This document shows positions 27,831 to 49,013 of a stretch of 64,000 nt of DNA, in pieces. Within the stretch, counting starts at the first letter, position 1, and every line of letters starts with the position of its first letter. The DNA is taken from NCBI GenBank assembly GCA_022792295.1, contig JAAWAR010000111.1, forward strand, positions 11,447-75,446, given 5' to 3'. Made by a program: the position numbers and the translations under genes. A model generated the notes under the pieces. That model saw only the letters and a list, made by a program, of their open reading frames with translations, was not told the DNA's origin and made no database searches. Source of the stretch: Lachnospiraceae bacterium. GTDB lineage: Bacteria > Bacillota > Clostridia > Lachnospirales > Lachnospiraceae.

Positions 27831-29453
27831 CTACTTCGTATTATTCGCGCTGTCAACCTCACAGACCATGAGACAGGCCCCCTTGCAGGCTAGGAACCGG
27901 TCAAGTGCCCCGTCTAAGGCTTCGTTGTCGCTGCATGTAAAATAGTCCATGTCATAGGCCTCGGCGATCTTATCGTATTTTGGATAATCGTAGAGCTGGA
28001 CGCCCGAATAGTGGCTGTCATAGACCTTTTCCTGATGCTCGCGTACGAGGCCAAGAAACTCGTTTTTGACAATAAGAATCTTGACGGGAAGCCGGTTGAC
28101 CGCGATCGTTGCCAGCTCATACATGGACATCTGGAAGGCCCCGTCCCCGCAGACGGCAACTGTCTGAAGATCCGGCATACAGACCTTCGCACCGATGGCG
28201 GCCGGGATCGAATAGCCCATTGTGCCCATACCGCCCGTTGTTAAAAAGCGGCCGTTTTTCATCACATAGTTGTCTGCGGACCAGAGCTGATTCTGCCCGA
28301 CATCGGCCACGTAGATTGCATTGTCGTCCATTTTTTCCGAGAGACGCTGGACAAGAAGCATGGGGTTGACGAGCCGGTCGCTGAAGATCCGGTGATCCAC
28401 GGTGTTCCGCTTAATTTCCTCAAGGGCCGCGATCCAGTCGGAGGTATCGAGGCCGAAATCCTCGGTAAGAAGGCGCTCGAAGATGCCTTTTACGTCTCCG
28501 ACCAGGGGGAGAGTGGGACCTAAATTTTTTCCGATCTCGGCCGTGTCGATGTCGATGTGAATGATATTGACCTGGCGTTCGAGGCTTTCCGGCTTCGGGA
28601 CGGCCCGGTCTGCGATACGCGCGCCGACGATGATCAAAAGGTCGCTGGCGGCGACAGCCCGGTTGGCATAGGGCTTTCCGTTGTTGCCAAGCATGCCGAA
28701 ATAGAGGGGATGCGCTTTGGGGAGGACACCGATGCCCATCATCGTGGAGACCAGGGGAACCTGGTTTTTCTCACAAAAGCTTCGTACGCACTCCTCACTG
28801 TTGCCTAAAATCACGCCGCCGCCGACACATAACAGCGGCTTTTTTGCCTTGCGGATCGCGGCGATGACCTTATTCATCTGCTGATTGTTGCCCTTTGTAT
28901 TGGGCTTATAGCCGCGGATGTTGACTTCCTCGGGGTAAGAGAACGGTTTTTTCAGATTCGCTAACTGGACGTCGCAGGGGATGTCAATGAGCACAGGGCC
29001 CTTGCGCCCGGTGGAGGCGATGTAAAAGGCCTCTTTCATGATCTGCGTAAGCTCGTCGGCATTTTTGACGAGATAGCTGTATTTGACAAAGGATTCGGTA
29101 GAGCCGCGCATATCGGCCTCCTGGAATACATCGCGTCCGAGAAGGCTGCTATCGACCTGCCCGGTAATCGCGACGAGGGGAATGCTGTCGGCGTAGGCCG
29201 TGGCGAGGGCGGTAATGAGATTCGTCGCTCCGGGGCCCGACGAGGTGACACAGACTGCGGGTTTTCTGGATATTCTTGCGTAACCATTAGCGGCATGGCC
29301 GGCCGCCTGTTCCTGACGGACCAAGATATGTTCAATGGAATCGGAATGATAGACGGCCTCATAAAAGGGCGCGATGGCAACTCCCGGATAGCCGAAAATC
29401 CGCGTAATGCCCTCTGCTTCGAGGCATCTGACCATGGCTTGTGCACCGTTCAT
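27831..29453 (-). CDS. ilvB: Acetolactate synthase large subunit
   Basis: MNGAQ, FGYPG, SGPGATN, DVGQNQLW, GDGAFQM TPP motif. Confidence 0.95.
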   Translation of the reverse strand: MNGAQAMVRCLEAEGITRIFGYPGVAIAPFYEAVYHSDSIEHILVRQEQAAGHAANGYARISRKPAVCVTSSGPGATNLITALATAYADSIPLVAITGQVDSSLLGRDVFQEADMRGSTESFVKYSYLVKNADELTQIMKEAFYIASTGRKGPVLIDIPCDVQLANLKKPFSYPEEVNIRGYKPNTKGNNQQMNKVIAAIRKAKKPLLCVGGGVILGNSEECVRSFCEKNQVPLVSTMMGIGVLPKAHPLYFGMLGNNGKPYANRAVAASDLLIIVGARIADRAVPKPESLERQVNIIHIDIDTAEIGKNLGPTLPLVGDVKGIFERLLTEDFGLDTSDWIAALEEIKRNTVDHRIFSDRLVNPMLLVQRLSEKMDDNAIYVADVGQNQLWSADNYVMKNGRFLTTGGMGTMGYSIPAAIGAKVCMPDLQTVAVCGDGAFQMSMYELATIAVNRLPVKILIVKNEFLGLVREHQEKVYDSHYSGVQLYDYPKYDKIAEAYDMDYFTCSDNEALDGALDRFLACKGACLMVCEVDSANNTK

Positions 29454-29723
29454 TCGTGCTCCTCCTGTTTCATTAGAAATTGATATTTGGAAAAAAAGAG
29501 ATACCGATACCGTAGCATAAGATAGGAGAGTTGTCAAGCGCGTGGGTAGAGTGCTCATAATTGTAATGAAGTCGAAATTCCTCTAATATTATAAGAAATT
29601 ATCTGCTGCATTTTGGCACCCGGCCAAACCGGAGCAGATATTTACTTACAAAAGGAGCCTTCCCGGAATCTCTCTTGCATAAGGAGACTGTGTGGGGCAC
29701 GCAAAGAAGAAACGGAGGAAAAC

Positions 29724-30323
29724 ATGGAGAACAGGATTTACGGGTATATCCGCGTATCAACCAAGGAGCAGAAAGAAGACAGACAGCGGGCGGCCATGAA
29801 GGAGTTTGGCGTGCCTTCCGACTGCGTGTTTATGGACAAGCAGTCCGGCAAGGATTTCAAACGGCCAGGCTACAGGCGGCTGATGCGAATGCTCAAGCCG
29901 TCCGACACGCTGGTAATTAAAAGCATTGACCGGTTGGGCCGGAATTATGAGGAGATCCTGGCACAGTGGAGGATTATCACCAAGGAAAAGCAGGCCTCCG
30001 TCGTGGTATTGGACATGCCGCTTTTGGATACGAGAGAGGGACGGGATTTGACGGGGACATTGATCGCGGACATCGTTTTGCAGCTTCTCTCATATGTTGC
30101 ACAGACAGAACGGGACTTTATCAGACAGAGGCAGGCGGAAGGGATTGCGGCAGCCAAGGCACGCGGAGTACGCTTTGGACGGGAGGCGATGGTACGGCCG
30201 GAGCTTTATGAGAGGCTGTGCGAGGAATGGAAAAGCGGAAGGGTATCGGCGAGGAGAGCGGCCAAGATATTGGGAATTACGCATCGAACATTTTTAAAGT
30301 GGGTGCGGAAGGAGTCGTGGTAA
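29724..30323 (+). CDS. Small serine recombinase (Hin/resolvase-invertase type)
   Basis: GGAGG RBS; YGYIRVST catalytic Ser, SIDRLGR, RQRQAEGIAAAKARGVRFGR, C-terminal HTH SARRAAKILGITHRTF. Confidence 0.95.
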   Translation: MENRIYGYIRVSTKEQKEDRQRAAMKEFGVPSDCVFMDKQSGKDFKRPGYRRLMRMLKPSDTLVIKSIDRLGRNYEEILAQWRIITKEKQASVVVLDMPLLDTREGRDLTGTLIADIVLQLLSYVAQTERDFIRQRQAEGIAAAKARGVRFGREAMVRPELYERLCEEWKSGRVSARRAAKILGITHRTFLKWVRKESW

Positions 30324-30503
30324 ATATTTGATACAGCCGGAAATCATCCGTGTGTGTCCATATAAAAGGAGGGTTAAAAGGAGCCTGTAAACCGAGGAGC
30401 AAGGCCTTTTTGGAATGGGAAATATTTTACATTTTTTAACTTTTTAAACGTGTAAACGGGAAAAATATCTAGGGAACTTTGTATGCCTAGCCTGTAATAA
30501 TTT

Positions 30504-30529
30504 GGATAAAAAAGTACAGTTTGGTATCC
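30504..30529 (+). repeat. Left invertase crossover site (26 bp, hix-like)
   Basis: GGATAAAAAAGT-AC-AGTTTGGTATCC (12+2+12); 30513-30533 is a perfect 21-bp inverted repeat of 30618-30638. Confidence 0.88.
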
Positions 30530-30581
30530 GCCAGAAAAAGGTGCCCTTTTATATACCTTATAGCGCACAAACTACGTAAAT

Positions 30582-30610
30582 ATCATAGCATAATCCATCT
30601 ATGATTGCAA
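30582..30610 (-). promoter_or_regulatory. Invertible sigmaA promoter, currently facing away from tnpB and the glycan cluster (OFF)
   Basis: Minus strand TTGCAA-N17-TATGAT with extended -10 TGn, lying between the two inverted sites. Confidence 0.85.
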
Positions 30611-30621
30611 TACCCCTTGGC

Positions 30622-30647
30622 GGATACCAAACTGTACTCTGGTATCC
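30622..30647 (-). repeat. Right invertase crossover site (26 bp, hix-like)
   Basis: Plus strand GGATACCAAACT-GT-ACTCTGGTATCC; half-sites 10/12 palindromic; core inverted relative to the left site. Confidence 0.88.
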
Positions 30648-30672
30648 ATTCAGGGGTTTTTTGGAGGTACAG

Positions 30673-31863
30673 ATGGAGCGGCGCTATAATTTCCGGATTT
30701 ATCCGAATCCGGCGCAGGAAACGCAGATACAGAAGAATTTTGACTGCGTTCGTTTTGTTTATAATTATTACCTGGCAAAGCGCAGGGAGGCGTACGAGAG
30801 CGGAAGGGGGATTATCGGCTATAACGAGATGTGCCGGGACATGACGCAGCTTAAGCGGACGGCGGGGTATGAGTGGCTTCGCGAGGCGGATCATAATTCC
30901 CTGCAGCGGGCACTGAAACAGCTAGATTTAGCCTTTCAGAAGTTTTTTCGGAATGTAAAGCAGAAGGGCACGGCGCCGGGATTTCCCGTCTTTAAATCGA
31001 AAAAGAGCCTGCGTCAGTCATACACGAGTCCCGCAAGTACGCCGAAACAGTACACAGACAAACGAACGGGAAACGTACGGGAACAAAAATCAAGTGTGGC
31101 GCTGTATGAAAATTCCATTAAGCTTCCGAAGCTTGGCAGGGTAAAATGCCGTGTATCCAAAAAGGCAGAGGGGCGTATTCTCTCCGCGACGGTTTTAAGG
31201 ACGGCTGCGGGGAGATATTTTGTTTCTCTCGTCTTTACGGACTGGGGGCCGGTGCCGTTTTTGCAAACGGGGAAAGCGGCAGGAATGCAGCTTGGCATCC
31301 GAACGCTTGTGACTCTGTCGGACGGGACGGAAATCAAGAATCCCTATTTTTTAAAGAAATCCAGAAAAAAGATCCTGCGCCTGCAAAAGGAGCTGTCGCG
31401 AAAGACAAGCGGCAGCCAAAATTATGAGAAGGCCAGGAAAAGGCTGGCACGGGCATATGAGCATACCCATAACCAGAAGGCGGATATGCTTCACAAGCTG
31501 ACGACGCAGCTTGTGCGGGAATACGATGTGCTTTGTGTGCGTGACGAGCCGTTAAAGAAGATGATAAGAGAGCGTCGGTTTGCAGGACCTCTTTTGGACG
31601 CGGGATGGGGGGCACTTGTAAGCGAGCTGTCTTATAAATGTGGCTGGTATGGAAAAACACTTGTAAAAATTGACCCGCTTTATCCGAGTACAAGGCGCTG
31701 CAGCGTATGCGGCTTTGAGTATATGCCTGTATCAAGGCAAAAGAGGATAATGGAATGGAACTGTCCGAGCTGTCATACGAGGCATAAGCGCGCAGTCAAT
31801 GCGGCAGTCAATCTGTTAAAGGAAGGAATGCGTCTGGCAGAGACCGGCCGGGAGGCGTCCTGA
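30673..31863 (+). CDS. tnpB: Nuclease-dead TnpB (TldR-like RNA-guided DNA-binding protein)
   Basis: GGAGG RBS then MERRYNFRIYPN (IS605 OrfB HTH), IKLPKLG, intact CSVC/CPSC Zn ribbon; RuvC motifs read GMQLG, CVRDE, HKRAVNAA instead of GxDLG, xEDL, HDRDxNAA. Confidence 0.9.
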   Translation: MERRYNFRIYPNPAQETQIQKNFDCVRFVYNYYLAKRREAYESGRGIIGYNEMCRDMTQLKRTAGYEWLREADHNSLQRALKQLDLAFQKFFRNVKQKGTAPGFPVFKSKKSLRQSYTSPASTPKQYTDKRTGNVREQKSSVALYENSIKLPKLGRVKCRVSKKAEGRILSATVLRTAAGRYFVSLVFTDWGPVPFLQTGKAAGMQLGIRTLVTLSDGTEIKNPYFLKKSRKKILRLQKELSRKTSGSQNYEKARKRLARAYEHTHNQKADMLHKLTTQLVREYDVLCVRDEPLKKMIRERRFAGPLLDAGWGALVSELSYKCGWYGKTLVKIDPLYPSTRRCSVCGFEYMPVSRQKRIMEWNCPSCHTRHKRAVNAAVNLLKEGMRLAETGREAS

Positions 31864-31882
31864 TAGAGAAAGAATGAAAAAA

Positions 31883-32009
31883 GCGGTACGGCCGGGCAGG
31901 CCGGAACCAAAACGCCTGTGGAGAAAGTGTGCAGATACAGTAAAAAAGCGTTCAGGGAAGCAGGAATCCTGGACTTACGGGAGTGCCAAAATCCATATGA
32001 TAATAAATG
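31883..32009 (+). ncRNA. Putative omegaRNA/gRNA scaffold (about 31883-31989) plus guide (about 31990-32009)
   Basis: Immediately 3' of tnpB: cggcc-GGGCA-ggccg hairpin, aacgcctgtggag...gaagcaggaatcc, terminal hairpin tcctg/cggga, then gTGCCaa; loop GGCA is complementary to TGCC (pseudoknot). Confidence 0.7.
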
Positions 32010-32047
32010 CGGCTGGAACACCATTTCAGACCGAAAGGCGGACAGAG

Positions 32048-34567
32048 ATGGAGAGATATAGGAAAAAGGATGTATTGCAGAAAGTGGCAATATTAATAGA
32101 GGCGAATGAGGCGACCGCCGGCGGGAAGGCAGATACTGACTTAGAGGAGTCGGTCAATCAGTTAATACAATGCCAGGATACCGCTGTCCAGATTGGAACG
32201 TATCTGGAGGCAATGGGGGAAGAATGTGCTTTTCTGGTCGGGCTTCTTGAAGATTATTGTGAAAATATTTACCAGATGAGCCTAAGCCTTAACGATGCAA
32301 ACCGCCGCCGGAAGCTTGTCAAAAAGATCAGGAGACAGCTTGCACAAGTAAAAAGCGGTATTGAACTTACCATGCCGGCCGACCGGAGAGAAGTCGTATT
32401 TCTTCCATATAAGGCGAGTATGTGGGATTCATTAGAAAGCGCATGGAAAGCGCTCGATGCAGATGCGAATACGGACGCCTATGTCATCCCGATTCCCTAT
32501 TATGACAAGAATCCGGATGGCAGCTTCGGACAGGAACATTATGAAGGAGATCTGTATCCCGCCAGTGTCCCGATTACGAGGTATGATGCATACAAGATTG
32601 AGGAGCGCAGGCCGGATGCAATTTTTATACATAATCCGTATGATAACGGCAATTTTGTCACAAGCGTGCATCCGTTTTTCTATTCAAAGAACCTGAAGCA
32701 GTATACGGATGAATTGATTTATATCCCTTATTTTATTTTAGATGAAATAGACTCGGAGGATGAAAAAACAGTAGAAGTGATGAAACATTTCTGCATGGTG
32801 CCGGGGGTTTTTAACGCGGACAAAGTCATCGTACAGTCAGAAAATATAAAACGATTTTATATAAAGGCGCTTCTCAAAGCCGGGGATAGTCACAGTCCAG
32901 AGGTAAAAAGGTATTGGGAAAATAAGATCCTTGGGCTGGGATCGCCCAAAATTGACAAGGTATTGCATACAAAAAAAGAGGACCTGGAAATCCCGGAAGA
33001 ATGGGTAAAGATCATAGAAAAACCAGACAGAACCTGGAAAAAAATTATTTTCTATAATACAAGTGTCGGAGCCCTGTTAGAGCACAGGGAACGGATGATC
33101 GGCAAAATAGAGAATGTACTGCGGATCTTTAAAAGCGTGCAGGACGATGTGGCCTTACTTTGGAGGCCGCATCCTTTGACGGAGAGCACGCTTAAATCCA
33201 TGCATCCGACCCTACTTAAAAAATATGAAAGGATTGTAGAAGTTTATAAAAAGGAAAACTGGGGAATCTATGACGACACGGCGGACATGGACAGGGCCAT
33301 AGTGTTGAGCGACGCCTATTACGGGGATAACAGCAGTGTGTTGCATCTGTATAAATTAAGGAGAAAGCCTGTTTTTTTACAGAATCCGTCTATCATAGAT
33401 GAGCTGGCAGATGGCAGAACCCACAGGACGGATCCCTGTCTTCATTTTGAAAACCTGTACGACGACGGGGAATGCTTCTGGTTTACGGAGGATCGGTTTA
33501 ACGCGCTTTTTAGGATGGATAAGGACACTTGGGAAGCGGAATACATCGGCCGGTTTCCCAACGAAAAGGATACGGGGATCCGGCTTTATGCGGAAATTAT
33601 AGAGCATGGGAATAAATTGTATTTTACACCGCTTTATGCAGACGAGATCGGCGTATACGATAAAGGGAACGGGGCCTTTTCCAAAATTTCGTTTGCAGAA
33701 TTGGAGATCGGCTTTATAGAGGGCTCCGGAAGGTCGGCAAACTTTTATTCGGCGCATTTGATTGACGACTGCATGTATTTTATGCCGCACGAGAGAAATG
33801 CCGTGCTGAAGTATGATTTAAAAAACGGTGAAGTACAGGCCATATACAGCTGGGGCAGAGCGATCACGGAGAGATATGAGCTATCGGCTCCCCGGCTGGC
33901 GTTTCAAAGTATTTATGCAAACGGCTGCATTTTTGCTCCCATATCAGGCGGCAACCTTTTAGCAGTCCTTGACATAAAAACGGAAACGACAGAAATTTTG
34001 GAGATAGGCAGCAAGGAAAATACATATTTTGATGTCTGCTTATGGAAGAACCGATTGATTCTGGCACCGCTGCAGGGAAAGGAAATCATCAGTCTGCGGC
34101 TGCCGGATATGCAAACGGAGAAACTTTTTCTGGAAGAATCCAATCCCTATCAATTTTTTTCGATTATACAATGCCATGACAGGCTGTATATGTTCCCCTA
34201 TCAGTATAAGGAGATATTGGAGATTACCGTAAATGAGGAAGGGCGTATGACCTGCGGCCCCTGTAAAGTATGGAACGATACACAAAAGATGGGCTACAGG
34301 CATCCGACAGACAGCCGATACTTAAGTGTAGCCGTGTATTCCGGCCGACTGTATGCGTATGACAGCTTTGAAAAAAAGCTGATTCGTTTTACGCCGAAAA
34401 CCGGGGAATTAAGAAAAGAGGCAGTCAAAATTTGTATCAGCGCTCCTCATGGAAGGGACGTAAGGGAGGCTTTAAAGAAAGCGTATTTCAAGGCATTCGA
34501 GGAGGCTCCAATCGTGTGGGAGGCCGGCTGGAGAACCCTTGGAAGCTTTTTGGAGCTTATGACTTAG
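32048..34567 (+). CDS. CDP-glycerol glycerophosphotransferase-like (GT-B) protein with C-terminal beta-propeller-like region
   Basis: VVFLPYKASMWDSLES, IHNPYD, LGSPKID, LWRPHP, DAYYGDNSS; start moved to ATG 32048 (GAAAGG RBS) because the track's longer N-terminus overlaps the omegaRNA. Confidence 0.65.
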   Translation: MERYRKKDVLQKVAILIEANEATAGGKADTDLEESVNQLIQCQDTAVQIGTYLEAMGEECAFLVGLLEDYCENIYQMSLSLNDANRRRKLVKKIRRQLAQVKSGIELTMPADRREVVFLPYKASMWDSLESAWKALDADANTDAYVIPIPYYDKNPDGSFGQEHYEGDLYPASVPITRYDAYKIEERRPDAIFIHNPYDNGNFVTSVHPFFYSKNLKQYTDELIYIPYFILDEIDSEDEKTVEVMKHFCMVPGVFNADKVIVQSENIKRFYIKALLKAGDSHSPEVKRYWENKILGLGSPKIDKVLHTKKEDLEIPEEWVKIIEKPDRTWKKIIFYNTSVGALLEHRERMIGKIENVLRIFKSVQDDVALLWRPHPLTESTLKSMHPTLLKKYERIVEVYKKENWGIYDDTADMDRAIVLSDAYYGDNSSVLHLYKLRRKPVFLQNPSIIDELADGRTHRTDPCLHFENLYDDGECFWFTEDRFNALFRMDKDTWEAEYIGRFPNEKDTGIRLYAEIIEHGNKLYFTPLYADEIGVYDKGNGAFSKISFAELEIGFIEGSGRSANFYSAHLIDDCMYFMPHERNAVLKYDLKNGEVQAIYSWGRAITERYELSAPRLAFQSIYANGCIFAPISGGNLLAVLDIKTETTEILEIGSKENTYFDVCLWKNRLILAPLQGKEIISLRLPDMQTEKLFLEESNPYQFFSIIQCHDRLYMFPYQYKEILEITVNEEGRMTCGPCKVWNDTQKMGYRHPTDSRYLSVAVYSGRLYAYDSFEKKLIRFTPKTGELRKEAVKICISAPHGRDVREALKKAYFKAFEEAPIVWEAGWRTLGSFLELMT

Positions 34568-34593
34568 GAAAAGGAAAGGATTGGACGAGATAT

Positions 34594-35700
34594 ATGGCAA
34601 ATATAGATCAGCTGGAAAAAGAAATCAAAACACCGCTTCCCGGTGCGCCTGCAAGAGAGGAAGCCAGCACATATTATGTAGAGATTTTGTCGGAATGCAA
34701 TCTGAAATGTGTGATGTGCGGGTTTGGAAGCCGGGAGATATTTGAGAGAAAACGCGGGAAAATGGATGTTGCGCTGTTTGGGAAAATTGTAGATGAAATA
34801 GCAAAAAGAAGCCCGCATGCCACAGTCGCTCCCTACCATCACTGTGAACCGCTGCTTCATCCACAACTTTCAGAGATGGTTAAAATAATAAAGTCGCATA
34901 ATCTGTTTTGTGAGGTGTCTACAAACCTGAATGTTGCAGGGGGGCTAAAGGAACTATTGGAGGCAGGAGTAGATTCGCTTGACATTTCAGTCTCCGGCTT
35001 TTATCAGGAAACCTACGAAAAAAATCATGTTGGCGGAGACATCGAAGAAGTAAAGCGGAATTTAAAGCTTCTGCATGATTTGATAAAGCAGATGAAAACA
35101 GGCCCGCAGATTACCGTCTTTTATCATATGTATACGGATAATTTGGGAGAAGACTTTGAACGGATGAAAGAATATGTGGAGAGCCTGGGCTTTTCCTTTA
35201 GCCCTAACTGGTCGCGCTCCATATGTACGGAAATGTCACTGAAATATATAAGAGAGACCGGCTATTCCCGGTATCATGGAGAGACTCTTAAATGGTTTGA
35301 CGACATGCCTCCTCTAACAGATGCATATAAAAGCGGGATCGAGAGAATGATCTATCTCCCGCAGGATTATCTGGAAGGGAAATGGGGAGAGACCAGGCTT
35401 GACGAATGTCCGATGAATGGCAGGCTCATTAATATTCGATGGAACGGAAAACTTTCCTTATGCAGCTGTACGTTTGACGACAGGCTGTCTGTCTATGAAT
35501 ATCTGACAACTCCGATCGAACAACTGTGGGAAGCAAGGCGCAGCCATCCGGTCTGCAGAGAGTGCCTGGCAAATAATTATGCATTGTATATGAACTATTT
35601 TGATATGGATTACATAGACAAAATTGCAAGAGCCAGGCTTTCACCGGATTTGGCGTCAAACAGAAGATTTTTTGGAGATAATGGAGTGGCAGAGCTGTGA
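34594..35700 (+). CDS. Radical SAM protein with SPASM/twitch-like C-terminus
   Basis: CNLKCVMC (CxxxCxxC), EPLLHP, STN, C-terminal C...C...CREC. Confidence 0.9.
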   Translation: MANIDQLEKEIKTPLPGAPAREEASTYYVEILSECNLKCVMCGFGSREIFERKRGKMDVALFGKIVDEIAKRSPHATVAPYHHCEPLLHPQLSEMVKIIKSHNLFCEVSTNLNVAGGLKELLEAGVDSLDISVSGFYQETYEKNHVGGDIEEVKRNLKLLHDLIKQMKTGPQITVFYHMYTDNLGEDFERMKEYVESLGFSFSPNWSRSICTEMSLKYIRETGYSRYHGETLKWFDDMPPLTDAYKSGIERMIYLPQDYLEGKWGETRLDECPMNGRLINIRWNGKLSLCSCTFDDRLSVYEYLTTPIEQLWEARRSHPVCRECLANNYALYMNYFDMDYIDKIARARLSPDLASNRRFFGDNGVAEL

Positions 35701-37304
35701 GGAAATGTGAAAGATGGCCGGAGGAGAATGGCATAAAATTTTCCGTTTTGATCCCGACGAGAGACAGACTGGATCTATTAAAAACGGCTGTGGCCAGTGT
35801 ACAGAACCAAACATATGAGAATTGGGAACTGGTTATCGTGGATAATTGCAGCGAGGAGGACGTGGGCGGCTATGCGGCCTCTCTTGCAGACAGCCGGATT
35901 GTTTTTTATAGGCAGTCGGAAGCGGTGAGCGTTACGAAAAACTGGAATACGGCGAACGGCCTGGCGTCGGGGGATTACAGGATTATGCTGGGAGACGACG
36001 ACGCGCTGCTGCCTAAGGCGCTGGAAATCCTTGCAGAACGGATTTCGCGCCACGGACATCCGGAGATCGTAAGCTTTATGGCATATGAGTATTTGCAGCC
36101 GCATGTCGATCCCCAAAACAGGGAGGGAAATGTAGCGTTAAGCGTCCCGTTTCTTTTGGATGACAATACGGAAGAAATGTATCTGTCCATGGACTGGAGA
36201 AGAAGGAGCATCGAAGCCTGCTTTTCCTTTGAGAAGGTACTTGGGTACAATATGCAGTTTTACTGCTATAGCAGAAAACTGGTGCAGCGTCTGGAGCGCT
36301 ATGGCGCCTTTTATGAGCCGCCTTATCCGGATTATTATACGACGAGCATGGCGATGCTTCTGGCAGAAACGTTTTTATACATTCCCGAGGTTATCACGGT
36401 AATCGGAGTGACTCCGAAATCCTATGGCTGTTATTACAGGAACAACAACGAAAAGGAGGGCATGAAGTTCCACAAAGAGGAGAACTTCCGCTCTTTTGCG
36501 CCGCTGTCCGTGAGAGAAATGTTATGCAGTGTAGATGAAATGGATACGGCGGCATTTGCGACGTTTGCGTTGGCGGCAAAAAGGCTGAAGGGGCCGTATC
36601 CGAGCCTAAAGGGATATTATAAAGCAGTGCTTAAAAGAGAGGCTCTGTATCGGACCGTAGAGGAGCTTCGTTTTCTGACAGACCAGGAAATGGCGGCTCA
36701 CATAACGGAAGCGGAAAAGAGGGAGCTGTATGCCTATGCACAAGAACTTAAAAATACGAGGAAAGGCGCTCCGGCAGCCAATCCAGAAAAGCCGATTTGC
36801 TTTGCATCGTTAAACGGCCTTCTAAAAAACGTGGAGGGGGTCGAAAAGGCACTGCTTGAGCGCAGTGACAGGCAGTATGGAGACATTGACGAATGGCTTA
36901 AAGCAGAGGGGCTGGAGATAATAACCGCTAATTATGCGGGAAGAAGCATACGAGTGTGGGGCGCATATCCGAGAGGAATATACCTGAAACAGAAATTGCG
37001 AAAAGCCGGATTTTTGGTGAATGGGTGTATAGACCGAATGGCGCTCGAGAAAAATTTTGCAGAAAAAACCTTTGCAGAGAACACGGTCCTATCTCCCAAA
37101 CAGGCCCTTAGCAGAAACAGAGAAGAATATATTGTGATTCCTCTGCTGAGCCGGCACGCAGAGATACTCGAATGGCTGAAGCAAGGGGAGTACGAACCGG
37201 AGAAGGATTTTTTGTATATGGGCGTGTCCGGCGGGAAACCAGAGGGAGAGATGAATGGAAAGGCTTTGCATTTTACAAGTATACCCACAGGGGAGAGGGA
37301 TTGA
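35697..37304 (+). CDS. Glycosyltransferase family 2
   Basis: FSVLIPTRDR, QTYENWELVIVDNCS, LGDDD. Confidence 0.9.
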   Translation: MRKCERWPEENGIKFSVLIPTRDRLDLLKTAVASVQNQTYENWELVIVDNCSEEDVGGYAASLADSRIVFYRQSEAVSVTKNWNTANGLASGDYRIMLGDDDALLPKALEILAERISRHGHPEIVSFMAYEYLQPHVDPQNREGNVALSVPFLLDDNTEEMYLSMDWRRRSIEACFSFEKVLGYNMQFYCYSRKLVQRLERYGAFYEPPYPDYYTTSMAMLLAETFLYIPEVITVIGVTPKSYGCYYRNNNEKEGMKFHKEENFRSFAPLSVREMLCSVDEMDTAAFATFALAAKRLKGPYPSLKGYYKAVLKREALYRTVEELRFLTDQEMAAHITEAEKRELYAYAQELKNTRKGAPAANPEKPICFASLNGLLKNVEGVEKALLERSDRQYGDIDEWLKAEGLEIITANYAGRSIRVWGAYPRGIYLKQKLRKAGFLVNGCIDRMALEKNFAEKTFAENTVLSPKQALSRNREEYIVIPLLSRHAEILEWLKQGEYEPEKDFLYMGVSGGKPEGEMNGKALHFTSIPTGERD

Positions 37305-39216
37305 AGCATACCTTTATTATCTGGCTGAAAAATTGCAGGAAATTTCTGCTTTTATGGTGGTTGCCGCAAACGGCGGGGTAAAGGACTGCGACAGGCAGCG
37401 CTTAAAAGAAATGCATTTGAACCTGTATGAGCGCCCGGACGCCGGATTTGACTGCGGGGCGTTTAAGGACACGCTGGAAAGGTACATAACATGGGAAGGC
37501 GTACAGGAATATGACGAATTGATTTTAGTAAATGATTCCTGCTATGGACCGCTTTTCCCCCTCGATGAAATGTTTCATAAAATGGACAAAGAAAAGGCTT
37601 CCCTGGATTTTTGGACGATTACTGAGCAGCAGCCGTTTAAAAAGGGACCATACTGTGAGGAAAAGATACCGTATCATATACAGCCGTATTTTGCAGTCAT
37701 CCGAAAAAAACTGCTGCATAGCCCGGATTTTTCTGATTTTTGGAAGGGCTTAACCGTACCGGAGAATTATTGGGAGGCGGTTGAGAACTATGAATTGAAA
37801 TTTGCCGCATTTTTTGCGGCGCGGGGCTATACGTGCGGAGCCTATGTGGATTCTGCCAGGTTTTGCAAGAGCGATACGGAGTGGTTTGCCTATGTTATGT
37901 TTGATATATTTCGTCTGATTTCCGAGTGCAGATGCCCGTTTGTCAAGAGAAAGGCGTTCAAATATATACAGGAAACGATATATAAATTAAACGCCGGTGA
38001 AACGGTGCGGAAGACTTTGGATTATATCCAAACGCATACCGCTTATCCGGCCGAGCTGATTTGGGAGGATCTGATCCATGACCTGCCGCCCAAAGCCCTG
38101 CATTTGGCGCTTCATTTAGACTATATGGTTCCTTCACACGATCGGACAGAGGGACACCAGGACGGTTTAAAGCGGAAGCTGTTCGTGTATGTCCGGGATA
38201 TAGACTTTGCAGAAGCATGCCTGAAACGGATCAATACCCTGCCTCCGAACACAGATGCTTATATGTATGCCGAAGGGCCTGCCATTAAAAAAATTTTTAA
38301 CGGCAGTACGCATGCAAAGCTTTGGAACCGGATTGATTCATGGGAGCAGACAGAAGAAATACATGCCGGCGAGTCGGATTATCTGTGTCTCATAATAGAC
38401 GACACAGCCACAAAAAAATTTTTTTATCATGCGGCAAAGCTTTCCTATATAGAAAGCGTATGGGAAAATATGTGGTTGGATCCTTCCTACGTTGAAAATG
38501 TGGTTTTTATTTTTGAAAAAGAAAAGAAATTAGGGCTTTTAACGCCTCCGGAGCCTTATTTTTCGATTTTCTTTACCTCCTGCTTTGCGTCTAAACCGTC
38601 TTCGGATGAAACTTTTACGACCAATCACGCGTTTTGGATTCGAACGGCAGCGATTCGGGAGCGTCTGTCCGGGCGTATAGAAAAAGAGTGGCTGTTTCCT
38701 TTGGCAGACACGTTATCCAAAGCCGTAAGGCGGTCCGGATTTTACAGCGGAATTTTGATGGAGGAACACTGGACATCCGTGTTTACGGCGAATTACCGTT
38801 ATATGCTGGAAGGGCTGACAAAACATATAGCGGGGGATGTCTTGTGCAACGGAGAATATGCGGAGATCATTTCCGTCAATCCCGAAATCTATCATTTTTG
38901 TCATGTATACAAAAAAATATATATCTACGGCGCCGGAAAGTTCGGGCATCACTGCCTGAACTATCTGAGTCAGAACGAAATCGAGTTTAAGGGGTTTGTC
39001 GTATCGGACGGGCAAAAGGAAAAAAACCATGGCATACAGCCGGTCTATGGGCTGAGTGAGATTGCGCTTGGCCCGGATGAGGGAATTATAGTCGGAGTCG
39101 GAAAAGAATATCTGGCAGAGGTCGAAAATGAATTGAAGAAAAGAAAAATCAGCCGTTTTGTCAGATGCGTAGACTGGGATGCGCAGATTGAGGAAAAGGC
39201 AAAAAACTATACATGA
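37255..39216 (+). CDS. Rhamnan synthesis F (RgpF) family protein
   Basis: GFDCGAF, LVNDSCYGP, DFWTIT, HIQPYF, YELKF, CPFVKRK. Confidence 0.85.
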   Translation: MERLCILQVYPQGRGIEAYLYYLAEKLQEISAFMVVAANGGVKDCDRQRLKEMHLNLYERPDAGFDCGAFKDTLERYITWEGVQEYDELILVNDSCYGPLFPLDEMFHKMDKEKASLDFWTITEQQPFKKGPYCEEKIPYHIQPYFAVIRKKLLHSPDFSDFWKGLTVPENYWEAVENYELKFAAFFAARGYTCGAYVDSARFCKSDTEWFAYVMFDIFRLISECRCPFVKRKAFKYIQETIYKLNAGETVRKTLDYIQTHTAYPAELIWEDLIHDLPPKALHLALHLDYMVPSHDRTEGHQDGLKRKLFVYVRDIDFAEACLKRINTLPPNTDAYMYAEGPAIKKIFNGSTHAKLWNRIDSWEQTEEIHAGESDYLCLIIDDTATKKFFYHAAKLSYIESVWENMWLDPSYVENVVFIFEKEKKLGLLTPPEPYFSIFFTSCFASKPSSDETFTTNHAFWIRTAAIRERLSGRIEKEWLFPLADTLSKAVRRSGFYSGILMEEHWTSVFTANYRYMLEGLTKHIAGDVLCNGEYAEIISVNPEIYHFCHVYKKIYIYGAGKFGHHCLNYLSQNEIEFKGFVVSDGQKEKNHGIQPVYGLSEIALGPDEGIIVGVGKEYLAEVENELKKRKISRFVRCVDWDAQIEEKAKNYT

Positions 39217-39246
39217 AACATGCATAGTTGTCTGGGAGAATGAAAC

Positions 39247-41313
39247 ATGAAGCGGATAGCAGTATTTACTGTATATGACAAGGATGGCGTTTTATATGCA
39301 TATCGCCGGCATATCCTGAAGGAATTGAGGGCCGTGGCTGACCGGGTAATCGTCGTATGCAACGGCCCAATGGAGCCGGGCAGCAAAAAGGCTCTGTATG
39401 AAATGGCAGATGAAGTTTTTTTCAGGACCAACAGCGGCTATGACGCGTTCGCCTACAAATATGCCCTGGAAGAAGCAGTCGGGTGGGCCAAACTGGAACA
39501 GTATGACGAGCTGCTGTTAATGAACGATTCATTTTACGGCCCGTTTTGGCTGATGGCAGACATTCTGGAAGAAATGGCAGAAAGGGACGCCGATTTTTGG
39601 GGGCTCACCGCACAGCCGCCGATGGCGAACACGTTTGGCAGCGCGTATTTTTACAGGGAGCTTCCCTACCACATTCAGACCTATTTTCTTGTAGTCAGGG
39701 ACAGGCTGCTGCATGCCCCTGCCTTTTGCAGATTTTGGGATACATTAGAGCCTGTAAACGGATTTACGGATGCGGTTACGAAATTTGAACTGCGGTTTAC
39801 TGCGTTTTTTCAGAAGGAAGGATTTTTGGCCGCCTCCTACGTCGATTGCGCCTGCATGGAACAGGAAAAAACGGAAAACAGGCTTCCGTATATTATGTAT
39901 GAGCCCTATGAGATGATAAAAGAGCATCATTGTCCCATTTTAAAAAGAAAATGTTTTACAATGCCTTATTCGGATATTCTGCAGTATTCGGTCGGACAGG
40001 ATGCCAAACGGGCACTGGAATTCATTTCCAGGCATACGGACTATGACGAGGGAATGATATGGGAACACCTTATACGGACCGTTGAGCCGGGAAAGCTGCA
40101 GCAGGCCCTGCATCTTAGCTTTATTCTGCCTTCTGCATACACCTCAAAAAAAGACAGGAGCAAAACACATAAGACGGCTGTGATCGCGCATGTTAACTAT
40201 CCGGAATTATTGGAAGAATGCTTTGCCTATCTGTGCCGGGTTCCTGCAAGGATCGATCTGTACATAACGACAAAATCCCTGGACATCAAAAAGAAGCTGG
40301 AAGAAAAATTTTATTCGCGCGGCCGCCTGAATGTTAAGGTGCGTATGATCGGGGACCGCGGCAGGGAGATCAGGGGGATGCTCATCGAGTGCGCGGATGT
40401 GTTTCGCGAGTACGAATATGTAGGCTATGTGCACGATAAACGAACGGCAGGAAATGCAGGGGAGGCCAAAATCGGAGAAATATACCGTTCTTTGCTGTGG
40501 GATAACATGTTGAAAAGCAGCGCATATATCAACAACGCCCTGGCTTTGCTGGAAGAAAACACGCATATCGGCCTGTTGGCGCCTCCGGAGCCATACCATG
40601 GAAACTATTTCCGGTATCTGGGGCAGGAATGGACGCAGAACTACCAAACGACGTGTGAATTAGCGTCCCGGCTGAAACTGCAATGTGTTCTGGAGGAAGA
40701 CTGTCCTCCGTTTGTACTGGGAACAACCTTCTGGTGCAAAAGCCGGGCGCTGGCTCCGTTAATCGACTTTGGATTTTCGGAGAACGATTTTGAAGAAGAA
40801 CCGCTGGGTCTGGATGGGACGATCAATCACGCTATAGAGAGAATTTTTCAATATGCGGCGCAAAGCCAGGGCTACGCGTCGGGAATCGTGATGAATGACG
40901 CCTTTGCATCCGACTATTTTGAAGATTATCACTGTATGCTGAACGGAGTCCTTTCGGAATTCAGAAAGACAGAAAAGTACTGTACACTTCGGGAGTGCAT
41001 GGAGTTTGGTGATACAGAGGCGCTGAAGGAATTTTGCGGCAGGTATAAAAGCGTGTATGTATATGGAACGGGAAGCTATGCCGCTATTTTGACAGATATT
41101 TTGCGTAATCTTAAAGTGGACTGGCAGGGATACGTTGTATCAGAAGGGCACAGGACAAAGAACCGCTGGAAGGGCAGGCCGGTCTGCCTGCTGTCTGAAA
41201 TAGAGAAGGAACGCAGAGAGGTCGGGTTGATTCTTGCACTTGACAAAATCCATCAGGCTGAAGTGCTTCCTGCATTGAGAGAAAAGGATTTTACAAACAT
41301 TTATAGAGTGTGA
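39247..41313 (+). CDS. Rhamnan synthesis F (RgpF) family protein
   Basis: NSGYDAFAY, MNDSFYGP, DFWGLT, HIQTYF, RGRE, HDKR, HAIER. Confidence 0.88.
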   Translation: MKRIAVFTVYDKDGVLYAYRRHILKELRAVADRVIVVCNGPMEPGSKKALYEMADEVFFRTNSGYDAFAYKYALEEAVGWAKLEQYDELLLMNDSFYGPFWLMADILEEMAERDADFWGLTAQPPMANTFGSAYFYRELPYHIQTYFLVVRDRLLHAPAFCRFWDTLEPVNGFTDAVTKFELRFTAFFQKEGFLAASYVDCACMEQEKTENRLPYIMYEPYEMIKEHHCPILKRKCFTMPYSDILQYSVGQDAKRALEFISRHTDYDEGMIWEHLIRTVEPGKLQQALHLSFILPSAYTSKKDRSKTHKTAVIAHVNYPELLEECFAYLCRVPARIDLYITTKSLDIKKKLEEKFYSRGRLNVKVRMIGDRGREIRGMLIECADVFREYEYVGYVHDKRTAGNAGEAKIGEIYRSLLWDNMLKSSAYINNALALLEENTHIGLLAPPEPYHGNYFRYLGQEWTQNYQTTCELASRLKLQCVLEEDCPPFVLGTTFWCKSRALAPLIDFGFSENDFEEEPLGLDGTINHAIERIFQYAAQSQGYASGIVMNDAFASDYFEDYHCMLNGVLSEFRKTEKYCTLRECMEFGDTEALKEFCGRYKSVYVYGTGSYAAILTDILRNLKVDWQGYVVSEGHRTKNRWKGRPVCLLSEIEKERREVGLILALDKIHQAEVLPALREKDFTNIYRV

Positions 41314-42590
41314 GCGGGGGGAGAGGCAAAATGCGGGCAGTTGAGGATACCGGCAGAATTTCGGAATATGTATGTTCTGCTTCGATCCATATGGCTTCTG
41401 AGGAGATTTTGACAGAAAATACGGCGCTCATCGTACATTTGTATTACGAGAGGCTGTTTGGGGAATGTATTTCATATTTGTGCGAGGTTCCTGAAGAAAT
41501 AGACGTTTATATCACCACAACATCGGAAGAAAAAAGGAAACAAATAGAAAAGATATGTCTGGAAAAGAAGGCGGCGTACCAAGAGATCCGAGTGGTCAAA
41601 AACAGAGGGCGCGAGCTTAGCGCATTATTTACTGCATGTGCGGATGTCTGGAAAAGCTATGCCTATCTGTGTTTTGTACATGACAAGGCTACGTCGGGGA
41701 ATGCGGGTCCCAAGAAAATCGGGGAAACCTACATGTTTCTGCTGTGGGAAAATTTGCTGAAAAATAAAATTTATATACGGAACCTTTGGTATTTTTTAAA
41801 GACGCATGAAAAGACAGGCCTGCTTGTGCCGCCTGTGCCGTATCACGACGGTTATTTCTCGAACTATGGAAACGAATGGACATCCTGTTATGAAAAAACG
41901 GGGGAGCTGGCAAAAAGACTGGGAATTACGAAGGAAATCTCCAAGGAATCCCCTCCGCCCGCCCTGGGGAGTGCCTTTTGGTGTAAGACAAAGGCGATGA
42001 AAACGCTCTGTGAGGCGAACCTTTCCTATGAGGAGTTTGATCCGGAACCGATGAAGACGGACAATACGATCAGCCATGCGATCGAACGAATCCTTCCTTA
42101 TGCGGCAGAACACGACGGCTATGAAACGGCGGCTGTGATGAACGACGAGTTTGCGTCGATTCAGGCGTCCAATTATCATTTTATGCTGAACAGCCTGGTG
42201 AAAAGAAAAACAAAGAATACTTGTTTTGCCACATACAGAGATTTAACGCAGCATGAGAATTATTTGAACTGCAGCAAGGCTGCGAAGTTTTTCGAAGCGT
42301 GCAGACCGAGATACGTGTACGGAACCGGCTTCTTTTCGGGCGAGGTAAGCCGATACCTGCAAAAACAGGGGATCCAATATGACGGTTATGTGGTATCTGA
42401 CGGCTACAGCCATCCGGAAACCTTCTGGGGAAAGCCCGTCATGAGCCTGTCATCTGTGCAGCCGGGAGAAAAGACGGGAATTGTTGTCGCTGTCAACATG
42501 AAAAACACACAAGAGATCGCATCGATCTTAAAGGAACGCGGATTTCATCATGTATATTTCAATCAAGCGGATGAGGGGATAAACGATTGA
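41310..42590 (+). CDS. RgpF-family protein (second RgpF domain only)
   Basis: VHLYY, NRGRE, FVHDK, GSAFWC, HAIERILP. Confidence 0.85.
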   Translation: MSGGRGKMRAVEDTGRISEYVCSASIHMASEEILTENTALIVHLYYERLFGECISYLCEVPEEIDVYITTTSEEKRKQIEKICLEKKAAYQEIRVVKNRGRELSALFTACADVWKSYAYLCFVHDKATSGNAGPKKIGETYMFLLWENLLKNKIYIRNLWYFLKTHEKTGLLVPPVPYHDGYFSNYGNEWTSCYEKTGELAKRLGITKEISKESPPPALGSAFWCKTKAMKTLCEANLSYEEFDPEPMKTDNTISHAIERILPYAAEHDGYETAAVMNDEFASIQASNYHFMLNSLVKRKTKNTCFATYRDLTQHENYLNCSKAAKFFEACRPRYVYGTGFFSGEVSRYLQKQGIQYDGYVVSDGYSHPETFWGKPVMSLSSVQPGEKTGIVVAVNMKNTQEIASILKERGFHHVYFNQADEGIND

Positions 42591-44419
42591 GAAATAATCT
42601 GGCGATCTATGCTACCTATGATAAAAACGGAAAAATTGACGACTATATTCTTTACTGTCTGCATGAACTGAGGAAGGTGGCAGATGATATAGCGGTCGTA
42701 AGCAATGCAAAACTTCCCCGAAAGGAGAAGGATAAGCTTTCCATGGTTCGCTATCTGTATGAACGGGAGGATACCGGATATGATGCGGGCGGATTCGCGT
42801 ACGCACTTGACAGGCTGCGGGGAGAAGGCCGGCTGGAAACGTATGATGCGGTTCTGTTTATGAATGATTCCGTATTCGGACCGTTTTATCCGTTTCAGGA
42901 GATGTTTGAGACGATGGAAAAAAGAGAGGACTTGGATTTTTGGGGAATCACCAAAAGAGGAGTCTCAGACTTTGACGGAGGCGATGCGGTCTATCCGGAA
43001 CATATCCAGCTGTATTTTTATGTGGTGCGAAAGAGGATGCTGCAAAGCGCCGATTTTACAGAGTATTGGACGACGCTCCCCCAAAAGCTGACGGATTTTA
43101 GGAGTGCGATTCTAAAGTACGAGTTTTTGTTTACAAAATATTTTGCAGACCGGGGCTTTCGATGGGATGTTTATTGCAAAACGGACGGATATGTGACAGA
43201 GAATCCTCACTTAAATATAAGCCCGTACCATTACTGCAGTTATGAGCTTGTAAAAGAGGCAAGATGCCCTCTGCTGAAAAGAAGGCTCTTTACGGGAGAC
43301 TTTGTGGAAGGAAGATTCAGCGACCGGTCGGATTTAAGGAAAGCCGTGTCTTACCTGGCGGATAATACGGCTTATGACATGGATCTGATATGGTCGCACA
43401 TCCTGCGGACTTATCCGCTGGGAGCCGTGATGGAGAGCATGCAGATGTACGAGCTGTTAGACACGCCTGCCGGCGCCTCTTTGCCGCAGCGCCTTCCGGT
43501 TCGGGTAATCGATCTGTTCGGGAACGTACTGCAAAATGCGGGTCTGGCTGTAAACGGCTTTTTTCCTGCCGAATATACACTGTTTATAGCCATAGAGGAA
43601 AACGGCACAATCCCCAGGGCATTGCTTGATGCACAGAAACACTGTATTCTTCAGAATTTAGTCAACGATGAAGCCTATCTTTTGGGCGTTTGCGAGCTGT
43701 TTGCAGGAAATCCCAGACTGGGTATGCTGATTCCGCCTGCGAATGTGTTCGGGAAGCTGAGCGGTTCGCTTGAAAAAAGATGGAAAAGGGAAGATCTCGC
43801 GGTAAAAATTCGGGATGCCTATCATTTGACCGTTCCGTTTGGCACATGTGCGCCCACGCATGATTTTTATGCGTTCTGGTGCAGAAGCAGTGTGCTTGAC
43901 GCCCCTCTTTTGGAAGCTTTAAAGGCAGACCGAACGGGGACCATGATGCAGATGATGCCGTTATTTGCCCAACAAAAGGGCTATTATACGGAGGTATTGG
44001 TAGGCAGAGCGTATGTGGTGGGCCTGCTGGCCAATATGCAGCGCACGATGTATGAGTTTTTTCACATGCAGGGATATGCATTGGCAGAGGATAAAGACAT
44101 AGAGGAGCTGAAAGAGGAGGCCTACAAAAGGCAGATTGCCGGATTTATTGGGAAGAAGGACAAAGTGTATGTCTACGGAGCCGGTCAGCTTGCATGCAGG
44201 GTGATCCGCATCCTGGAGGGAATGAGAAAGCCAAGCGGCATTGTCGTCAGCGACAAAAACGGAAATGCAGAAACCATATGCGGATATCCGGTGAAAGGAA
44301 TCGAGGAAGCAAATCTGCAGGGCTGCATCCTAATCCTTGCAGTCGGAGAAAAAAATAACACGGCTGTGGAGGAAAGGCTTAAGAAACTAGGAATCACGGA
44401 CTATCTGACGCTTGTGTAG
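42587..44419 (+). CDS. Rhamnan synthesis F (RgpF) family protein
   Basis: GYDAGGF, MNDSVFGP, DFWGIT, HIQLYF, CPLLKRR. Confidence 0.85.
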   Translation: MRNNLAIYATYDKNGKIDDYILYCLHELRKVADDIAVVSNAKLPRKEKDKLSMVRYLYEREDTGYDAGGFAYALDRLRGEGRLETYDAVLFMNDSVFGPFYPFQEMFETMEKREDLDFWGITKRGVSDFDGGDAVYPEHIQLYFYVVRKRMLQSADFTEYWTTLPQKLTDFRSAILKYEFLFTKYFADRGFRWDVYCKTDGYVTENPHLNISPYHYCSYELVKEARCPLLKRRLFTGDFVEGRFSDRSDLRKAVSYLADNTAYDMDLIWSHILRTYPLGAVMESMQMYELLDTPAGASLPQRLPVRVIDLFGNVLQNAGLAVNGFFPAEYTLFIAIEENGTIPRALLDAQKHCILQNLVNDEAYLLGVCELFAGNPRLGMLIPPANVFGKLSGSLEKRWKREDLAVKIRDAYHLTVPFGTCAPTHDFYAFWCRSSVLDAPLLEALKADRTGTMMQMMPLFAQQKGYYTEVLVGRAYVVGLLANMQRTMYEFFHMQGYALAEDKDIEELKEEAYKRQIAGFIGKKDKVYVYGAGQLACRVIRILEGMRKPSGIVVSDKNGNAETICGYPVKGIEEANLQGCILILAVGEKNNTAVEERLKKLGITDYLTLV

Positions 44420-44453
44420 GGCGGATTGACGAGAGCATGAAGGGGAACGGATT

Positions 44454-44987
44454 ATGGTTTTTAACAAATTAAAAATTGAAGGTGCCTTTTTGATCTGCCG
44501 TCAGCCCAATCAGGATGAACGCGGATATTTTTCAAGACTCTATTGTGAAAACGAGTTTCACGAAGCCGGGATCCGAATGGATCTCAGGCAGATGAATCTG
44601 TGTGAAAACAGAGAAAAAGGGACGCTGCGGGGGCTGCACTTTCAGAAGGGAGAGTATGCGGAGGATAAAGTGGTTTCGTGTACGCGGGGGTGCATTTACG
44701 ATGTGTGTGTAGATGTAAGGCCTGACTCGCCGACGTATCAAAGCTATTGCGCCTATGAGCTGTCGGAGGAGAATGGAAGGATGCTCTATATCCCAAAGGG
44801 CTGCGCGCACGGTTACGTCACACTGACAGAAAACTGTCAGCTTTTGTACCTGATGTCTCAGTTTTATGCCCCCGGCCATGACGGGGGATACCGGTATGAC
44901 GATCCGGCGTTCCAGATAGACTGGCCGGTAAAGACGGGGCTGATTCTTTCAAAAAAGGACAGGGAGTTGCCGTGGATCGGCAGCTGA
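44454..44987 (+). CDS. rfbC: NDP-4-keto-6-deoxyhexose 3,5-epimerase (RmlC/RfbC family)
   Basis: DERGYF, GTLRGLHFQ, DVRPDSPTY, IPKGCAHGY, IDWP. Confidence 0.92.
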   Translation: MVFNKLKIEGAFLICRQPNQDERGYFSRLYCENEFHEAGIRMDLRQMNLCENREKGTLRGLHFQKGEYAEDKVVSCTRGCIYDVCVDVRPDSPTYQSYCAYELSEENGRMLYIPKGCAHGYVTLTENCQLLYLMSQFYAPGHDGGYRYDDPAFQIDWPVKTGLILSKKDRELPWIGS

Positions 44988-45027
44988 AAAATAATAAGAA
45001 AATAAAAAAGGTGAGGAATCAAACAGT

Positions 45028-48282: not shown

Positions 48283-48291
48283 ATGAAATGC

Positions 48292-48320
48292 TTGTATAAA
48301 TTGGTTGAATCCTGTACAAT
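48292..48320 (+). promoter_or_regulatory. Internal sigmaA-like promoter for the CDP-alditol module
   Basis: TTGTAT-N17-TACAAT in the gap between GT32 and the epimerase. Confidence 0.5.
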
Positions 48321-48345
48321 GGAGATACGTTCTGGAGGAAAGGGT

Positions 48346-49008: not shown

Positions 49009-49013
49009 ACGGT

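Follow-up and report, generated by a model that had tools for sequence, protein, structure and literature searches.

A 118-bp promoter cassette inverts in nature in the genome of a Lachnospiraceae bacterium. The cassette lies within a stretch of 64,000 nt that was analysed as a whole (the window), between the gene for a small serine recombinase and a gene of the TnpB family, tldR. In the orientation captured in the window, the promoter of the cassette is directed away from tldR and toward the 3′ end of the recombinase gene; this is the OFF state. The locus is very probably a phase-variation switch. The adjacent recombinase would flip the cassette. In the ON orientation tldR and a guide RNA would be expressed from it, as probably would a glycan operon, and the TldR protein would most likely silence a paralogous gene on another contig, C129.

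Recombination sites and inversion of the cassette

The cassette is bounded by a perfect 21-bp inverted repeat, with its left arm at 30513–30533 and its right arm at 30618–30638, which enclose an invertible interior of 84 nt (30534–30617). Inspection of the window together with a repeat finder extends the arms to 31 nt (30503–30533 and 30618–30648) at 90% complementarity. The 21-bp pair is the sole spaced long inverted repeat of the 64-kb window; the three remaining matches of the repeat finder are hairpins or palindromes. Two 26-bp imperfect palindromes form the recombination sites. The left site (30504–30529) reads GGATAAAAAAGT-AC-AGTTTGGTATCC, with its centre at 30516–30517 and half-sites that agree at 9 of 12 positions. 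The right site (30622–30647) reads GGATACCAAACT-GT-ACTCTGGTATCC, with its centre at 30634–30635 and agreement at 10 of 12. The two centres are 118 bp apart. An arrangement of 12-bp half-sites around a 2-bp centre that is the same in both sites, with the sites inverted, is thus present at the level of sequence. The initial annotation had described a perfect 21-bp repeat in two AC/GT-centred imperfect palindromes of 26 bp; sequence and repeat finder agree with this description, and all of its coordinates are correct.

The layout of the sites is shared with a second genome of the genus. G001 is a mouse-gut Lachnospiraceae isolate with an orthologous recombinase (85% nucleotide identity) and tldR (82%), and related cassettes lie on its contigs C3 and C6. 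The cassette on C6 (L010:1168–1309) is paralogous. It is accompanied by a tldR of 69% amino acid identity and a glycosyltransferase-like gene, has no adjacent recombinase, and is preceded by genes for a choline-binding-repeat protein and an NTase-substrate-binding protein; its arms are imperfect. The 12+2+12 layout claimed for the window is kept in all three loci (window, G001:C3 and G001:C6), whose 12 half-sites yield the consensus GGATAcCAAAsT with the centre AC. The centre-to-centre distance in these loci is 116–118 bp. In one genome per genus from 400 genera of the family, the exact two-arm pattern is present in this genome only, and the sequence of the sites is therefore genus-specific. 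A genome-wide scan allowing up to three mismatches gave no convincing additional 26-bp site. At the window locus the crossover is bounded to the 21-bp repeat, and a crossover position at AC/GT is consistent with the data.

Evidence for inversion comes from Logan contigs of sequencing runs X1, X3, X5 and X8 and from the assemblies L019–L021, L023–L025 and G001. Within the species of the window, the OFF orientation is seen in contigs of X1 and X5 that run across the cassette, as well as in L019 and L020. X3 and X8 are isolate-type runs from different studies, whose Logan contigs break at 30533, 30504–30638 and 30609; the end of the left arm, 30533, is an exact contig end in both. Each of these two runs contains a 39-nt contig with an inverted junction, in which 30609–30638 is followed by TTTTTATCC, the reverse complement of the left flank. 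Its k-mer depth is 6.2 in X3, against a flank of about 28, and 5.0 in X8, against about 8. The junction thus stands at about a fifth of the flank in X3 and over half in X8, contig depths being rough. Since the depths of the 135-nt contig do not fit a simple mixture, the ON/OFF ratio is given only as appreciable. L021, a metagenome-assembled contig from this species, begins within the cassette, has its interior reverse-complemented relative to the window and carries the second inverted junction. The two inverted junctions of the species therefore derive from separate sources, one from the X3 and X8 contigs and the other from L021. Both the 39-mer and the first 200 nt of L021 match a simulated ON sequence only and are absent from the window. 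A search of JGI metagenome contigs for the left junction with a 23-nt query returned no match.

Both orientations also occur in the sister species represented by G001. BLAST aligns 30504–30648 of the window with the opposite strand of G001, where the promoter lies on the strand of tldR. G001:C3 is ON, and the cassette is OFF in L023, L024 and L025, three further assemblies of the sister species with an identical TldR. The 84-nt interiors of the two states, compared between L006 and L023, are exact reverse complements of each other, set between flanks that are identical at 149/150 and 150/150 positions. The initial annotation had proposed an invertible 118-bp segment caught in its OFF state and had named inverted junctions in related strains as the decisive check. 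These junctions are found in X3, X8 and L021, and the inverted orientation in G001:C3. A fold-back artefact is an unlikely source of them, because the depth of the junction is sizeable, because it is absent from X1 at 35× and because whole-interior inversions occur in long contigs.

The adjacent serine recombinase

The gene upstream of the cassette (29724–30323, plus strand) encodes a ‘hin’-like small serine recombinase of 199 aa. Its product matches the Pfam family Resolvase (PF00239, E = 6.7e-31), with a weak additional match to HTH_28. The predicted catalytic Ser12 lies within IYGYIRVSTKEQ, and the product has the motif YIRVSTKEQ and a C-terminal HTH, in keeping with the recombinase named in the initial annotation. 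A ribosome-binding site, GGAGGA, stands 5 nt before the ATG, and ilvB/ilvN are divergently oriented upstream. The gene ends at 30323 and is directly followed by the cassette (30504–30647). Ser12, Arg10 and a DRLGR motif align with Sin and γδ resolvase. Among solved structures the nearest are Sin/Bin3 (2r0q, 4.6e-27), γδ resolvase (5e-21) and Gin (5e-15), which places the enzyme nearer to Sin/Bin3 and γδ resolvase than to Gin as judged by alignment score.

Relatives of the recombinase are numerous. At least 8000 candidates were scored, all with E ≤ 1e-20; the best 120 of 8000 are 73–81% identical and come mostly from gut metagenomes. Three relatives of 76–78% identity were looked up in their genomic context (L027/L028, L029–L031 and L032–L037), in gut Clostridia from human and animal gut metagenomes. 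Two stand directly before Tad-pilus operons with PP2C_2, TadZ-like and CpaF-like genes, and one lies inside rml/polysaccharide clusters. Their cassettes, located 3′ of the recombinase stop codons, show an A-rich outer half-site, an AC or AT centre and TTGCAA beside the inner half-site; one homologue has AT where the window locus has AC. The pilus cassettes are flipped between assemblies, L027 relative to L028, and L029 and L031 relative to L030. In the L027/L028 pair the only shared repeat is ACAGGTTA, of 8 bp, starting at the predicted AC centre, so that the crossover there is confined to 8 bp. Two variants were seen in the third set: a weaker, second resolvase-like gene occurs downstream in L032, and the DNA that follows the recombinase is different in L034.

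The genome of the window contains what looks like a second switch. At C102:11670–11828 (L002:2033–2191), a gene for a 195-aa paralogous serine recombinase (L002:1420–2007) precedes a pair of perfect 21-bp inverted repeats, AAAAAGTGTACTTTTTTGTAA, around 117 nt, after which comes a gene for a 275-aa protein with a signal-peptide-like N-terminus. At least four GC-rich inverted-repeat pairs occur elsewhere (C7:29873–30128, C32:6600–6856, C49:13661–13914 and C132:95–354). With arms of 35–38 bp, interiors of about 181–184 nt and similar arm sequences (GCAGAGGCCGG...), these look like a separate family of repeated elements.

It is improbable, although this is the alternative that survives best, that the inversion is real but catalysed in trans by another enzyme, either a paralogous serine invertase of the C102 type or a tyrosine recombinase, with the adjacent gene incidental or one of several. 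At least one paralogous recombinase in the genome comes with an inverted-repeat pair of its own, and the closely similar cassette at G001:C6 lacks a neighbouring recombinase, which makes action in trans possible. The C6 sites, however, keep the half-site consensus, so that the C3 enzyme could serve the C6 cassette. Recombinase and cassette adjoin, moreover, in both species and at every homologous recombinase locus inspected, and 12-bp half-sites around a 2-bp centre fit small serine recombinases. Catalysis by the adjacent recombinase remains the preferred reading. A spacing of 116–118 bp between the sites is tight for synapsis by a serine recombinase, which raises a question of mechanism.

Promoter, hairpin and downstream genes

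The interior of the cassette holds a predicted σA/σ70-like promoter on the minus strand (30582–30610). It consists of a −35 box TTGCAA (30610–30605), a 17-nt spacer and an extended −10 element with TGc before TATGAT (30587–30582). In a promoter scan of 29400–32200, this minus-strand TTGCAA-17-TATGAT is the sole match with TG before the −10 box. The scan agrees with the initial annotation, which had drawn the same promoter pointing back at the recombinase, and the element is kept in the three loci. When the three cassettes are aligned, the −35 box, the −10 box and the stretch GGATTATGC before the −10 are invariant, as are the sites, whereas the rest of the interior has diverged. A FliA promoter was considered and rejected: the interior has TTGCAA-17-TATGAT, and no CCGATA-type or GCCGATAA-type FliA −10 box was found on either strand of it.

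The promoter spacer has a further feature. At 30592–30605 it contains CAT followed by AATCCAT, the first 7 nt of the guide described below. At G001:C6, spacer and guide both read AATCCGT, so that a single A/G position co-varies relative to the window; the chance of such co-variation by coincidence is roughly estimated at 1 in 12. The bases before CAT in the spacer differ from those at the real guide targets. The 7-nt likeness could mean feedback on the locus's own switch.

In the OFF state, an extended hairpin (CCCC...GGGG) and, after it, a run of T6 stand directly before the ribosome-binding site of tldR (30613–30662, plus strand). The CCCC comes from the cassette and the GGGG from the flank, and the right site lies between them. 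RNAfold gives −23.4 kcal/mol for the OFF sequence versus −18.5 kcal/mol for the simulated ON sequence, in which 4 nt separate the stem from the U-run and a hairpin near the U-run persists; the same trend is obtained for G001:C3. A terminator scan lists 30637–30655. The hairpin and T6 are a candidate orientation-dependent terminator.

This raises the alternative, which we regard as very unlikely, that the cassette serves mainly to control read-through from the recombinase gene or further upstream, as a terminator or insulator that can be inverted, with the promoter-like motif secondary. The position of the OFF-state hairpin and U6 directly before the ribosome-binding site speaks for it, as does G001:C6, where the cassette in its OFF state contains a canonical terminator, CCACCGGAAACGGTGG followed by T7, on the strand of tldR. 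Against it, all three promoter elements (−35, −10 and extended −10) are held constant in three otherwise diverged cassettes, and a TTGCAA −35 abuts the site in distant members of the family too. The terminator and promoter roles are compatible with each other and with a phase-variation switch.

The gene that the ON promoter would face, tldR (30673–31863, plus strand), encodes a 396-aa homologue of TnpB with Pfam matches to HTH_OrfB_IS605, OrfB_IS605 and Cas12f1-like_TNB. Its ribosome-binding site, GGAGG, is at 30663–30667 and its ATG at 30673. Alignment to the TnpB-type nuclease 9yyg indicates that the three acidic RuvC residues are replaced, D to Q (GMQLG), E to R (CVRDE) and D to A (HKRAVNAA), which marks the product as a nuclease-dead protein of the TldR type. 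The prediction that inversion would aim the promoter at the tnpB ribosome-binding site at 30663 is supported: the aim is borne out by the ON sequence and by G001:C3, and the label tnpB gives way to a RuvC-dead TldR. The gene is single-copy in the genome. Outside the genus the nearest relatives of TldR are only 55% identical, and a search of genome contigs with a TldR alignment recovered two loci only, both in G001.

The proximity of a TnpB-family gene, within 35 bp, and the capacity of inverted repeats to produce chimeric reads and contig breaks might suggest a transposon end (an IS605/IS607-type left end with tnpB, or a MITE) and inversions that are assembly or library fold-back artefacts, but this can be dismissed, as the gene is single-copy and catalytically dead, the cassette elsewhere precedes unrelated operons with no tnpB, the 84-nt interiors are cleanly reverse-complemented between identical flanks in long contigs of independent assemblies, and X1 passes through at 35× with no break, so that the break effect is not systematic.

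Downstream of tldR is a guide-RNA region (31864–32006, plus strand). Its scaffold ends in ...GTGCCAA and is followed by the 17-nt guide AATCCATATGATAATAA at 31990–32006; scaffold and guide are conserved in the three tldR loci. Elsewhere in the genome the guide is matched exactly at a single position, C129:6128. The match lies in a gene for a 448-aa TagB/F-like protein, 48% identical to the product of the first gene of the window's glycan operon. The C129 locus starts with a flagellin gene and includes GT2, sulfotransferase-like and PAPS-pathway genes. Against the window's own TagB/F-like paralogue the guide shows 4 mismatches, including one at position 6. Of the two G001 guides, that of C6 is matched over 17 nt by the operon gene of C3, and that of C3 fits two paralogues on contig C2 along 15 nt. 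From the guide matches at C129 and in G001, the switch probably selects which of several glycan programmes is expressed.

The guides of the three loci are nearly alike (AATCC[A/G]TATGATAAT...). They match NPYDN codons in TagB/F-like paralogues of other loci (window 31990–32006; L026:6128–6144; L017:5462–5478; L038 and L039), and all matched target sites are preceded by TTTATACAT or TTTATTCAT. A tentative extension, which we hold to be somewhat less probable than its negation, is that the inverton gates an RNA-guided cross-silencing network among alternative flagellin-glycan loci, in which each TldR guide would fit the first TagB/F-like gene of a rival at the NPYDN stretch and mismatch its own.

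A co-oriented glycan operon of about 19 kb follows (32048–50804, plus strand). Pfam matches identify a TagB/F-like protein of 839 aa, a radical SAM protein, a GT2, four RgpF-like proteins, RmlC, a C-methyltransferase, an epimerase, more glycosyltransferases, and IspD-like and ADH-like proteins. From 29724 to 50804 the genes are the recombinase, tldR and glycan enzymes only. The terminator scan saw no terminator-like site between tldR and 32048. The operon is probably the cargo of the switch and co-transcribed with tldR. Gene callers start its first gene at 32048 (839 aa); the longer open reading frame 31874–34567 (897 aa) over-extends upstream across the guide-RNA region (31874–32047).

In the sister species an additional gene lies within the switch region. 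A stand-alone Spo0A_C-domain gene (Pfam, 4e-24) occupies the minus strand between the recombinase and the cassette of G001:C3 (L006:763–1300). Its start, AAGGAGGG followed by GTG, is about 88 nt from the left site. As the gene is on the opposite strand, the OFF promoter points at it, which suggests that the cassette of the sister species is a two-way toggle. The window locus lacks a Spo0A_C-domain gene.

Proposed mechanism and relation to known systems

A mechanism for the switch can be outlined. (i) The 199-aa recombinase most likely binds both 26-bp sites as dimers, and a synaptic tetramer forms; this step draws on knowledge of the family and on the conserved adjacency of gene and cassette. 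(ii) Staggered cuts of 2 nt at the central dinucleotide, followed by subunit rotation, would leave the 118-bp cassette flipped. (iii) In the OFF state, the promoter would read toward the recombinase gene, with the hairpin and U-tract standing before the tldR ribosome-binding site. (iv) In the ON state, transcription would cross the right site and enter tldR, then the guide RNA and probably also the glycan operon of about 19 kb. (v) TldR and its guide would most likely silence the paralogous TagB/F-like gene in the flagellin-linked glycosylation island, C129. (vi) A sub-population would in this way swap one glycan programme for another.

The classical paradigms are Hin/hix of Salmonella and Gin/Cin/Pin. 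These systems have inverted 26-bp sites of 12+2+12 layout and a promoter inside the segment, and they serve flagellum-related surface variation. The window locus resembles them in its serine recombinase with a C-terminal HTH, its inverted 12+2+12 sites and the promoter within the segment. Unlike Salmonella Hin/hix, however, the segment is about 118 bp rather than about 1 kb or more, and the recombinase gene lies outside it. Members of the Din subfamily depend on a recombinational enhancer bound by Fis, and Fis is a proteobacterial protein. In contrast to the Hin/Gin/Cin/Pin (Din) enzymes, the recombinase scores better with Sin/Bin3 and γδ resolvase than with Gin, and membership of the Din subfamily therefore fails on sequence. 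The Sin, β and Bin3 proteins of Firmicutes are the best matches of solved structure, over the full length including the HTH. Those enzymes, however, act on res or six sites with accessory sites to resolve cointegrates or multimers, whereas the window locus shows only two crossover-type sites, in inverted orientation.

In Bacteroides fragilis, the serine invertase Mpi acts on invertible polysaccharide promoters, and UpxZ mediates trans-locus inhibition. The two cases share short promoter invertons before surface-glycan operons, and one invertase may serve several sites (as at C6). By analogy with UpxZ, the product of the ON locus would silence rival loci. The phylum is different, and silencing here would fall to a dead nuclease guided by RNA, whereas UpxZ inhibits antitermination. 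The cross-silencing network, if true, would be an RNA-guided counterpart of UpxZ that allows one glycan at a time.

The closest precedent is provided by the hin-inverton-csrA-tldR loci of Walker et al. (2026, Nat Microbiol, PMC13418256). These have hin upstream, an inversion of about 120 bp, a FliA-dependent promoter and linkage to csrA/fliC, and they concern flagellin isoforms of Oscillospiraceae. The likeness extends to hin directly upstream, a promoter segment of about 120 bp that is inverted between related loci, a downstream nuclease-dead TnpB with its guide, and a target inside the open reading frame of a paralogous gene. The differences lie in host, promoter and cargo. The host here is a Lachnospiraceae, with no csrA or fliC at the locus and a flagellin gene on another contig, C129. 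The promoter is σA-like and lacks the GCCGATAA-type FliA −10 box. The locus has a glycan operon as its probable cargo, and the guide matches a glycosylation gene, not one for flagellin. Literature searches yielded no specific report of an inverton switch of this kind in Lachnospiraceae or of flagellin glycosylation under invertible control.

The type of switch is thus already known, and the present locus is an added case with a σA-like promoter and glycan cargo. It extends the hin-inverton-tldR arrangement from the flagellin isoforms of Oscillospiraceae to flagellin-linked glycosylation in Lachnospiraceae, and from a FliA-type to a housekeeping-type promoter. An inverton-gated, RNA-guided hierarchy among glycan loci would be its more unusual part. 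The unit of recombinase and cassette is very common in gut Clostridia, where it precedes Tad pili, polysaccharide and other surface genes, and genome annotation or expression work in which a single orientation is taken for granted will misinterpret such loci. In a mouse-gut Lachnospiraceae, as read from public data, DNA inversion probably toggles a putative RNA-guided repressor and a large glycan operon.
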